From contig JAWAKK010000002.1 in NCBI GenBank assembly GCA_038887515.1, positions 160,001 through 224,000 of the forward strand: 64,000 nucleotides of DNA. Direction: 5' to 3'. How positions within the stretch are numbered: position 1 is the first letter of the stretch; each line of letters starts with the position of its first letter. The notes below the pieces were generated by a model, which was not told the origin of the DNA, ran no database searches, and worked only from the letters and a program-made list of their open reading frames with translations. Shown piece by piece: positions 60,861 to 63,176 of this stretch. The position numbers and the translations under genes were made by a program. Origin of the DNA: Candidatus Nezhaarchaeales archaeon (GTDB lineage: Archaea; Thermoproteota; Methanomethylicia; Nezhaarchaeales; WYZ-LMO8).

Positions 60861-61388
60861 ATGGTTTCGGAGCCCTCAGAGCAATACGATAAAGAGTTGA
60901 CAAACGTACTATTGAAGCTGATTGCAGTACTTTGTGGCAAAGACGCCATCGAAGTAGTCAAAGTGTTACTTAACGAGAAGGAGATGAGTGACGAGATACT
61001 AGCCGAGAAAACGGGTATGAGACTTAACCAAGTTCGACGAATCCTCTACGACCTTCTGGACAAGCACGTCGTGACTTACCAGAGAGGGATAGATGAAGAA
61101 AGGGGTTATTACGTGTACACTTGGTCTCTGAATAGGGACGGCCTAAAGGAGATAGTGAAGGAGAGAAAGAGGCTAGTCTTAGAGAGACTGCGCGAGAGAA
61201 TTCGATACGAGGAGCAGAACATGTTCTTCGTTTGTCCCAACAGTTGTACTGGTAGGATGCCCTTTGATAAGGCTTTGGATCAACAGTTTAAATGCTTGCG
61301 TTGTGGCGCAGTACTGCAAAGCTTCGATAACACCAAGATGATTGAGAAGTTAAGGGCAAAAATAGAGGCGTTAGAGAAGGATCCTTAA
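60861..61388 (+). CDS. tfe: Transcription factor E (TFE-alpha)
   Basis: wHTH (VRRILY.L...Y.W) plus Zn ribbon F.C..CG. Confidence 0.9.
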   Translation: MVSEPSEQYDKELTNVLLKLIAVLCGKDAIEVVKVLLNEKEMSDEILAEKTGMRLNQVRRILYDLLDKHVVTYQRGIDEERGYYVYTWSLNRDGLKEIVKERKRLVLERLRERIRYEEQNMFFVCPNSCTGRMPFDKALDQQFKCLRCGAVLQSFDNTKMIEKLRAKIEALEKDP

Positions 61389-61486
61389 GCGTAGTTACGA
61401 TGTAGAGTTACCTCCTAGAGAGCTTAAAGGACAAGATACGTAAGTTTTATCTTACCTTAGGGGTAGAACCAATCCTTGTGGGTTTT

Positions 61487-63176
61487 ATGAAATACATTTT
61501 CATTACAGGAGGTGTTTTATCAAGCGTAGGTAAGGGGGCCGTGACTGCTTCGATAGGCAAGATGCTCCAGGTTAGAGGCTTTTCTGTAACGGCAATAAAG
61601 ATAGACCCATAGGCCTTAGGGGCCGGGTAAACATAAACGTTGATGCTGGAACAATGAACCCATAGGCTCTGAGCTGGAGGCTTAGAGCCGGGTATATATG
61701 CATGGCGAGGTCTTCGTGACGGAGGATGGCGGCGAGGTAGACCTAGATCTCGGTCACTATGAGCGTTTTCTCGATATAGACCTATCAAAGGACAACAACA
61801 TTACGACTGGACAAGTGTACATGGTGGTCATAGAGGCCGAGAGGAGGGGGAAGTACCTCGGCAAGTGCGTACAAATAATACCTCACATAACCGACGAGGT
61901 GAAGAGGAGGATAAGGTTAGTAGCTCAGAAGAGCAACGTGGACGTGACGCTCGTAGAATGTGGAGGCACAACGGGGGACATAGAGGGACTCCCCTTCCTT
62001 GAGGCTATAAGGCAAATGAGACTTGAAGAGGGCTTTTCGAACACGCTCTTTGTTCATGTAGCCTTAGTTCCAATATTGGAAGTAACTGGAGAATTTAAGA
62101 CGAAACCTCTACAACACAGCGTCCAAGAGCTTAGACGCATAGGTATACAGCCCGACATCGTAGTGGCAAGGTGTAAGCAGCCGCTAGACGATGAAGCCAA
62201 GAAGAAAATAGCGCTTTACAGCAACGTCCCTGAAGAGGCGGTGTTCACGTCTTACGATGTGGACTGCATATACGAGCTTCCAATAATACTTGATGGACAG
62301 GGAATGGGCGCTTACATATGTAAGCGGCTTACGCTAGATGGATGTAAAGCCGACTGGTCTTCGTGGAGGGAGATAGTTGAGAGGTATAGAAGTTTTAAGT
62401 ACGAAGTCGAAGTATGCATGTGCGGTAAGTACACGAAGCTAAAGGACTCTTACATAAGCATAATAGAGGCCTTAAAGCATGCGGGCGCAGCCCTTGAAAC
62501 TAAGGTTAACATGACATGGCTCGAGGCAACAACGTTCGAACAAGGAGAGGGCATACCTCGAGAGTTTCAGGATATTTTGAGTTCCTGTGATGGCATAATA
62601 GTACTGCCGGGCTTTGGGGCCCGTGGGGCAGAAGGTAAGATTAAGGTCATCAGATACGCAAGGGAAAACAAGGTACCGTTCCTGGGCATATGCTTTGGAA
62701 TGCAACTGGCAATTGTAGAGTTTGCACGAAACGTTGTAGGTCTCAAAGAAGCAAACACAACAGAACTTGATCCGTCAACGTACCACCCGGTTGTTGACCT
62801 CCTACCGGAACAGCACTACGTTAAGGAAGTAGGTGGTACTATGAGACTCGGGGCTCAGGCAACCGTGCTTGAACCCGGAACGAAAGTCTACGAGCTTTAT
62901 GGAAGGCCGATAATATTTGAAAGGCATAGGCATAGGTACGAGGTCAACCCGACCTACTGGTCTGTACTTCAAAGCCACGGTTTGGTCTTCTCCGGATATA
63001 GCATTGATAAACGGAGGGTGGAGTTCATAGAGCTCAGGGACCACCCATTCTTTGTTGCAACTCAATCGCACCCAGAGTTCAAGTCGAGGCCCAATAGACC
63101 CTCACCCATATATTACGGCTTCGTGAAGGCCTGCCTCGAGCATAGGCTTAAGAGATTATCAGCTCCGAAATGCTGA
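61487..63176 (+). CDS. pyrG: CTP synthase, split by two introns; join(61487..61610, 61631..61663, 61696..63176), 545 aa
   Basis: Spliced product reads [17 protein letters not shown]...[27 protein letters not shown]; also [16 protein letters not shown] and HPEF. Confidence 0.95.
61611..61630 (+). other. BHB-type mRNA intron 1 in pyrG (AGGCCUUAGGGGCCGGGUAA)
   Basis: ACCC/GGGU helix, bulges AU^A and AA^A, inner hairpin GGCC-UUAGG-GGCC. Confidence 0.9.
61664..61695 (+). other. BHB-type mRNA intron 2 in pyrG (AGGCUCUGAGCUGGAGGCUUAGAGCCGGGUAU)
   Basis: ACCC/GGGU helix, bulges AU^A and AU^A, 10-bp inner stem GGCUCUGAGC/GCUUAGAGCC. Confidence 0.92.

Follow-up and report, generated by a model that had tools for sequence, protein, structure and literature searches.

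As the closest described relative of the element studied here, an intron with the bulge-helix-bulge (BHB) motif in the cbf5 pre-mRNA of Crenarchaeota was reportedly described by Watanabe in 2002 and by Yoshinari in 2006. For more than 20 years, cbf5 has been the sole archaeal protein-coding sequence known with a BHB intron. In the available text of the later literature, a 2009 paper by Yokobori (PMC2738675) remarks that cbf5 was still the sole confirmed gene, a 2020 study (PMC7714728) names cbf5 as the one additional BHB intron described for archaea, and a 2023 review counts two archaeal genes, namely cbf5 and HVO_1309 with an intron in its 5'-untranslated region (5'-UTR), and expects more (PMC10485636). 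Here we analyze a stretch of 64,000 nucleotides (nt) of a Candidatus Nezhaarchaeales archaeon from a hot spring (assembly GCA_038887515.1, contig JAWAKK010000002.1, positions 160,001 to 224,000; in our own numbering genome G000, contig C2, 160001-224000), hereafter the window, at the right end of which lies pyrG, the gene of CTP synthase, on the plus strand. Our analysis indicates that positions 61664-61695 within the coding part of pyrG are very probably a BHB intron of the mRNA, which would be excised from the transcript in vivo. Our search of the full-text literature yielded no description of an intron in pyrG, nor of any introns from Nezhaarchaeota, Methanomethylicia or Culexarchaeia; supplements, where the gene tables of metagenome-assembled genomes (MAGs) could list a split or pseudo pyrG, and subscription journals lay outside that search. 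According to the available part of one paper (PMC12700198), one class of this lineage was recently brought into culture, and the splicing prediction is therefore directly testable.

From the list of open reading frames (ORFs) together with the sequence, pyrG of the window is found split over three reading frames. The parts into which we divide it are the following, in coordinates of the window:

61487..61610, plus strand: exon 1, with ATG at 61487, 41 codons and the first base (U) of Tyr42
61611..61630, plus strand: predicted intron 1, 20 nt, splitting the Tyr codon of D-P-Y-I-N
61631..61663, plus strand: exon 2, a 33-nt micro-exon with AC of Tyr42, ten codons and U of Tyr53
61664..61695, plus strand: predicted intron 2, 32 nt
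61696..63176, plus strand: exon 3, with AU of Tyr53 and then a 492-residue ORF with its stop

Exon 1 corresponds to positions 1-40 of the Pfam model CTP_synth_N (E 6.5e-15), and exon 3, the ORF of which occupies 61698-63176, corresponds to positions 54-265 of the same model (E 6.2e-91) and to GATase, with no break in either Pfam domain. The 13 model positions missing between them (41-53) are exactly what exon 2 provides together with both restored Tyr codons, and the spliced product would have 41 + 1 + 10 + 1 + 492 = 545 amino acids (aa). Of the three structures in pyrG announced by the original prediction, which was made from the letters of the window, two are found (61611-61630 and 61664-61695), while the third was not identified, exon 3 being continuous by Pfam.

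The elements of intron 2 run from 5' to 3' as helix, bulge, hairpin, helix and bulge, which is the geometry of the archaeal BHB motif, and two 3-nt bulges on opposite strands with a 4-bp helix between them are found in the window and throughout the ten orthologues compared below. Their positions are:

61658..61661, plus strand: 5' strand of the central helix, exonic ACCC, pairing with 61690-61693
61662..61664, plus strand: bulge 1, AUA, with the predicted cut after 61663; invariant in ten genomes
61665..61689, plus strand: hairpin whose stem has 10 bp (61665-74 paired to 61680-89) and whose loop varies
61665-61674, plus strand: 5' arm of the hairpin, GGCUCUGAGC
61675-61679, plus strand: loop of the hairpin, 5 nt
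61680-61689, plus strand: 3' arm of the hairpin, GCUUAGAGCC, with one G-U pair
61690..61693, plus strand: 3' strand of the central helix, intronic GGGU
61694..61696, plus strand: bulge 2, AUA, with the predicted cut after 61695

Helix, bulge and hairpin are all recovered by RNAfold, both in the minimum free energy fold and in the centroid fold, at -23.6 kcal/mol as compared with a mean of -14.4 for shuffled sequences (z -3.44), and only 2 of 200 shuffles fold as well. In these folds the stem is lengthened to 11 bp and the loop has 3 nt.

If intron 2 is retained, the reading continues as CCA UAG, that is, a stop at 61663-61665 directly follows exon 2. Its length of 32 nt is not a multiple of 3, and all three frames hold a stop inside it, in the genome of the window and likewise in four of the nine other orthologues. 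If the transcript is cut after the second base of each bulge, i.e. after 61663 and after 61695, the Tyr codon is rejoined as U/AU (the slash marks the junction) and the peptide N-P-Y-M-H results; the same rule applied to intron 1 yields D-P-Y-I-N, and cuts by this rule lead to an in-frame product in 10 of 10 genomes. A cut between bulge residues two and three is the rule given for cbf5 introns in the available text on them (PMC2738675). The original prediction had drawn intron 2 with a 10-bp stem holding one G-U pair, a 4-bp helix and two AUA bulges, and had placed it in the Tyr codon of N-P-Y-M-H, in frame with the 492-aa ORF and with 545 aa in total, an immediate UAG following on retention. 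The sequence agrees exactly with that drawing and so does RNAfold, the junction and the length were obtained again on recomputation with fitting Pfam positions, and the stop stands where it had been expected.

A stop codon right after the last sense codon and then a stable hairpin make a layout superficially like the take-off site of phage T4 gene 60, and it may be supposed on this ground that the mRNA keeps the insert and ribosomes pass over it, either by hopping in the style of gene 60 or by programmed frameshifting. However, no codon matching the take-off CCA stands directly before the resumed frame, and the Tyr codon, being split, exists only once U is joined to AU. The closed frames inside the insert also speak against bypass, as does the gap length, which differs among species from 30 to 33 nt; moreover, bypass would require two such events within 85 nt, as well as comparable events in six or more other genes. 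We consider bypass very improbable, and as a candidate explanation it was rejected for the lack of a matching landing codon and of an open frame through the gap. A self-splicing intron or an intein was rejected as well, in view of the 32 nt, the stops inside, a length that is not a multiple of 3, and no Rfam match but tRNAs.

The comparison with related genomes argues for excision as well. Forty-one related genomes were searched with the 492-aa ORF and pyrG was found in 39 of them; the order comprises 15 species genomes, and the family of the window 10 genomes in 4 genera (Nezhaarchaeales-like MAGs). Both inserts stand at identical codons in all ten family genomes, and neither of them occurs in the five other genomes of the order, where the sequence is continuous. 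In the ten genomes, intron 2 has lengths of 32, 32, 32, 32, 31, 31, 31, 33, 33 and 30 nt, and intron 1 of 20, 21, 20, 19, 20, 19, 20, 22, 19 and 27 nt. Since the length varies from 30 to 33 and from 19 to 27 nt, respectively, the frame relation between the exons is not conserved. Despite these differences, the junction peptide that results from removal of the insert at the bulge positions is the same in 10 of 10 genomes.

At the same time, variable sites among the ten genomes gather at third codon positions. Counted at first, second and third positions, they number 9, 5 and 36 in exon 1, 0, 0 and 7 (of 11 each) in exon 2, and 9, 5 and 57 over the initial 182 nt of exon 3. As the third-position variation is seen in each exon's own frame, all three pieces of pyrG are taken to be translated in the spliced register, and the exons flanking intron 2 are, as judged from this substitution pattern, under codon-level purifying selection in the spliced frame.

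Within intron 2, 16 of the 32 positions show no variation and another 8 have a conservation of at least 90%, while the loop differs from genome to genome in sequence as well as in length. The original prediction had named conservation of the pairing in orthologous introns as a way to examine the structure, and the pairing indeed holds in all ten family genomes: 96.4% of 140 cells are paired as compared with at most 52% when the partner is slid, compensatory changes occur with 2 of 14 pairs changed on both sides, and the observed percentage is attained by 1 of 500 shuffles. By helix, 97% of cells are paired in the hairpin, which holds the 2 pairs changed on both sides, and 3 of 4 pairs of the central helix are invariant. 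For intron 1, 98.9% of 87 cells are paired and 2 pairs are changed on both sides. By our own reading there may be a third compensatory change in intron 2, from G-C to C-G in genome G007, masked by a one-base bulge in the alignment. The indel pattern plus the exact restoration of the protein appears to us a stronger argument than covariation.

These comparisons bear also on the thought that pyrG is a decaying pseudogene, or that the insert is an artefact of assembly or binning. A naive reading does show a gene broken by stops and frame changes, and all the genomes are MAGs. Against this, both inserts were found in 10 independently assembled species genomes of 4 genera, the exons vary strongly at third positions only, and the stems of both inserts are conserved while synonymous sites nearby are nearly saturated. 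Moreover, a protein search with the 492-aa ORF gives only one pyrG match in the genome, which is 94% complete. A pseudogene or an artefact is thus exceedingly improbable.

The genome encodes the machinery that such an intron would need. Two PF01974 (EndA) genes are present, of 191 and 178 aa, at G000 C1:132427-133002 and C3:63664-64200. The former is closest to the PDB chains 3p1z_B, 3ajv_B and 2zyz_B (E 2.6e-48), which we take to be the catalytic subunits of crenarchaeal two-subunit enzymes; the latter is divergent, with a weak match also to the partner chains 3p1z_A and 3ajv_A. RtcB is encoded too (E 5.2e-181), and of the genome's 46 tRNA genes, 20 have an intron by ARAGORN prediction. As far as genes go, the host therefore has the EndA type for relaxed motifs ((alpha-beta)2 or epsilon2) along with the RtcB ligase, and we infer from sequence that the two EndA subunits form a heterotetramer.

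Several observations weigh against an excised BHB intron or lessen the force of the evidence for it. The outer helix of intron 2 consists of at most one A-U pair adjoining bulge 2, and in 4 of 10 genomes this pair is A-C; in the central helix, 2 of the 10 genomes no longer have the A-U pair. The covariation is modest, and the ten genomes are related, so that the shuffle control overstates its significance. Every genome compared is a metagenome assembly. In three metatranscriptome runs, sampled at 3-5%, the reads on 61300-62300 numbered 0, 0 and 1, the last a partial one, which speaks neither for nor against splicing. This sole read (run X3) covers 61703-61741, is 90-95% alike, and fits from about the start of exon 3, followed by unlike sequence.

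Regarding the outer helix, intron 2 does not show the strict hBHBh' form with outer helices of at least 2 bp on both sides, and has an inner helix of 10-11 bp. Because the outer helix is nearly absent, its motif is of the relaxed kind and would depend on an EndA of broad specificity. The relaxed motif is the type reportedly cut by hetero-oligomeric EndA, and most cbf5 introns have it, as the available text of one paper tells (PMC2738675). The absent outer helix of the strict motif may also be taken as a hint that the insert is removed from the RNA by some agent other than EndA and RtcB, such as another nuclease and ligase, or by self-cleavage. However, the geometry and the in-frame cuts are those given for cbf5 BHB introns cut by hetero-oligomeric EndA, in the same portion of that paper (PMC2738675), and the genome, by sequence, encodes EndA of this very type. 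As for self-cleavage, no Rfam family but tRNA reaches the threshold in the window. We know of no self-splicing intron that comes near a size as small as 32 nt. Removal by another agent is accordingly judged unlikely to a high degree.

With EndA and RtcB as the probable agents of cleavage and ligation in the cell, the process may be pictured as follows. In the transcript, the 4-bp central helix would arise by pairing of the exonic ACCC with the intronic GGGU, which leaves a 3-nt bulge on each side, and the rest of intron 2 would fold into a hairpin of 10-11 bp. The two-subunit EndA would cut after the second base of each bulge, namely after 61663 and 61695, and RtcB would join the exons, by which the Tyr codon U/AU is rebuilt and the 33-nt exon 2 comes into frame with the 492 aa of exon 3. 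With the sister intron at 61611-61630 also removed, the 545-aa enzyme would result.

The sister intron has a structure of the same kind:

61605-08 (ACCC) with 61625-28 (GGGU), plus strand: central helix of intron 1, with bulges AUA at 61609-11 and AAA at 61629-31, and a hairpin of 4-5 bp

The two pyrG introns share the context ACCCAU/A as well as their ends (AGGC...GCCGGGUA), and they may be paralogues. In a search of the genome by blastn-short with both introns, no copies were found beyond each other's shared ends, hence nothing points to a repeat family or to a tRNA intron as the donor.

As a target of such inserts, pyrG is found to be hit repeatedly. We fetched 110 pyrG loci, 107 of which could be scored: 81 are uninterrupted at the intron sites, 14 carry introns 1 and 2 (the 10 genomes and 4 duplicate records), and 12 carry a different BHB-type insert of 21-28 nt which splits the Lys codon of the G-K-G motif in the P-loop. 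This insert is built of a GGGG/CCC(C/U) helix with bulges and a hairpin of its own, and occurs in other families of the class, including a Culexmicrobium record:

L012:3060-3085; L014:1365-1388; L020:1363-1388; matching sites in L013, L015, L021-L025, L040 and L044: insert at the P-loop site of pyrG (L numbers are loci)

In the genome of the window, further candidates were sought by a genome-wide scan for the geometry of intron 2, with reversed sequence as control. With hairpins of at least 9 bp, the scan gives five matches in the real genome and none in the control; besides intron 2 of pyrG, they interrupt an IF-2B-family gene and the genes of uS5, aIF5B and aIF2-gamma. The IF-2B-family gene is presumably MtnA-like, going by a motif known to us. 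The loosest version of the scan gave 1124 ORF-joining matches and is not discriminating. With compact hairpins there is no overall enrichment, 37 matches being found in the genome and 52 in the control under the initial G-U rule, and 34 and 30 under the corrected one; when A was added at intron position 1 and at position 1 of bulge 2, the counts were 15 and 9. As matches with short stems are not enriched over the control, they are mostly due to chance and were not counted. Two matches with shorter hairpins interrupt hypD and cbf5. Intron 1 of pyrG is too near intron 2 for the ORF-length filters of the scan, and was found by eye and by comparison of orthologues. Five contigs of 6.6-12 kb (C5-C9) have 50-63% G+C, as compared with 44-45% for C1-C4, and may be mis-binned; they were excluded from the last scan, that is, from the counts of 15 and 9. 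The six candidates are:

G000 C2:24144-24175 (locus L035:3145-3176), plus strand: BHB insert in aIF2-gamma, 32 nt, 11-bp hairpin, inside D-x-P-G-H-E
G000 C1:3238-3267 (locus L034:939-968), minus strand: BHB insert in the gene of ribosomal protein uS5, 30 nt
G000 C2:21722-21750, plus strand: BHB insert in aIF5B, 29 nt, its outer helix being 6 bp long and the motif thus strict
G000 C1:10133-10162, minus strand: BHB insert in the IF-2B-family gene, 30 nt, splitting the Asn of T-H-C-N-A-G
G000 C3:12273-12294, minus strand: BHB insert in hypD, 22 nt
G000 C2:333915-333935, plus strand: BHB insert in cbf5, 21 nt, splitting the catalytic Asp codon (G/AT) between its first and second letters

In the four long-hairpin genes, the pieces of each gene correspond to neighbouring parts of a single Pfam model or agree with its expected layout, and exon 1 of uS5 has no Pfam match. 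In five of the genes, all six but cbf5, the junctions presumably lie inside well-conserved stretches, as far as consensus motifs familiar to us can tell. All 10 family genomes have the aIF2-gamma insert, and none of the 5 others of the order has it; the uS5 insert occurs in 14 of the order's 15 genomes, and its hairpin and 4-bp central helix alike show compensatory changes. The junction in cbf5 is at the intron position published for this gene, as given in the available text (PMC2738675), and therefore serves as a positive control; the cbf5 intron thus appears to extend to the Nezhaarchaeales-like lineage. From these alignments and scans, at least six more core genes of the genome are predicted to carry BHB-type introns beyond pyrG. 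All eight mRNA introns start with A, which is the third base of bulge 1, and in every one of them bulge 2 likewise opens with A; a recognition preference of the host EndA for A at both positions may be the cause. By pattern, a further motif of the form CCC-UAG-hairpin-GGGU-A, 27 nt, is seen around 304723 on the minus strand of contig C1.

Regarding the lineage as a whole, we propose tentatively, and at rather less than even probability, that Nezhaarchaeales-like archaea have in common, across the lineage, eight or more BHB introns (two in pyrG and one each in aIF2-gamma, aIF5B, uS5, the IF-2B-family gene, hypD and cbf5), each in a most-conserved motif, with pyrG invaded at three sites among related lineages; BHB introns would then be mobile in mRNAs and settle where the exon cannot drift. 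If this is true, the tRNA-splicing machinery would be required for both CTP synthesis and translation initiation, as a side effect of mobile BHB introns. Such genes would offer a natural system to view the gain, movement and retention of introns spliced by protein enzymes in coding sequence, which bears on the origin of interrupted genes. There is also a practical side, namely that gene callers will truncate such genes or call them pseudogenes; pyrG would lose the nucleotide-binding N-terminus of CTP synthase, and truncated calls distort the metabolic reconstruction of lineages known from MAGs only.

Compared with known systems, pyrG shares with the bypass in phage T4 gene 60 a stop and a hairpin after the last decoded codon, and differs from it in lacking matched take-off and landing codons, in the variable length of the gap and in the splitting of a codon. 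In the HAC1/XBP1 splicing of eukaryotes, RNA stem-loops mark out a short intron, a protein endonuclease makes the cuts and RtcB the seal, and removal of the intron shifts the frame. That system differs in its endonuclease, which is IRE1 rather than EndA, and in being a regulated stress switch, whereas regulation is not indicated for pyrG. The part taken by RtcB in XBP-1 splicing is stated in the available text of one paper (PMC8718801). The BHB intron of HVO_1309 in Haloferax volcanii is likewise one of an mRNA processed by EndA, although it lies in the untranslated leader, not in coding sequence, and in a host with homodimeric EndA, as far as the available parts of two papers describe it (PMC7714728; PMC10485636). 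The BHB introns of archaeal tRNAs, including multiple and non-canonical ones, have the same motif and presumably the same enzymes, however in pyrG the host is an mRNA, in which no tRNA body or anticodon stem is at hand for the outer helix and the frame must be kept. The nearest likeness is with the cbf5 intron of Crenarchaeota, for which the available text of one paper describes a short intron within protein-coding sequence, a relaxed BHB motif, cuts between the second and third bulge residues, a codon split in a highly conserved motif, hosts with hetero-oligomeric EndA, and lineage-specific gain or loss (PMC2738675). In contrast to cbf5, the host gene here encodes a metabolic enzyme rather than one of RNA modification, it would hold two introns around a 33-nt micro-exon, and it belongs to a Nezhaarchaeales-like lineage; pyrG would thus add to cbf5 an essential metabolic gene with two introns conserved family-wide, together with at least six further interrupted core genes.

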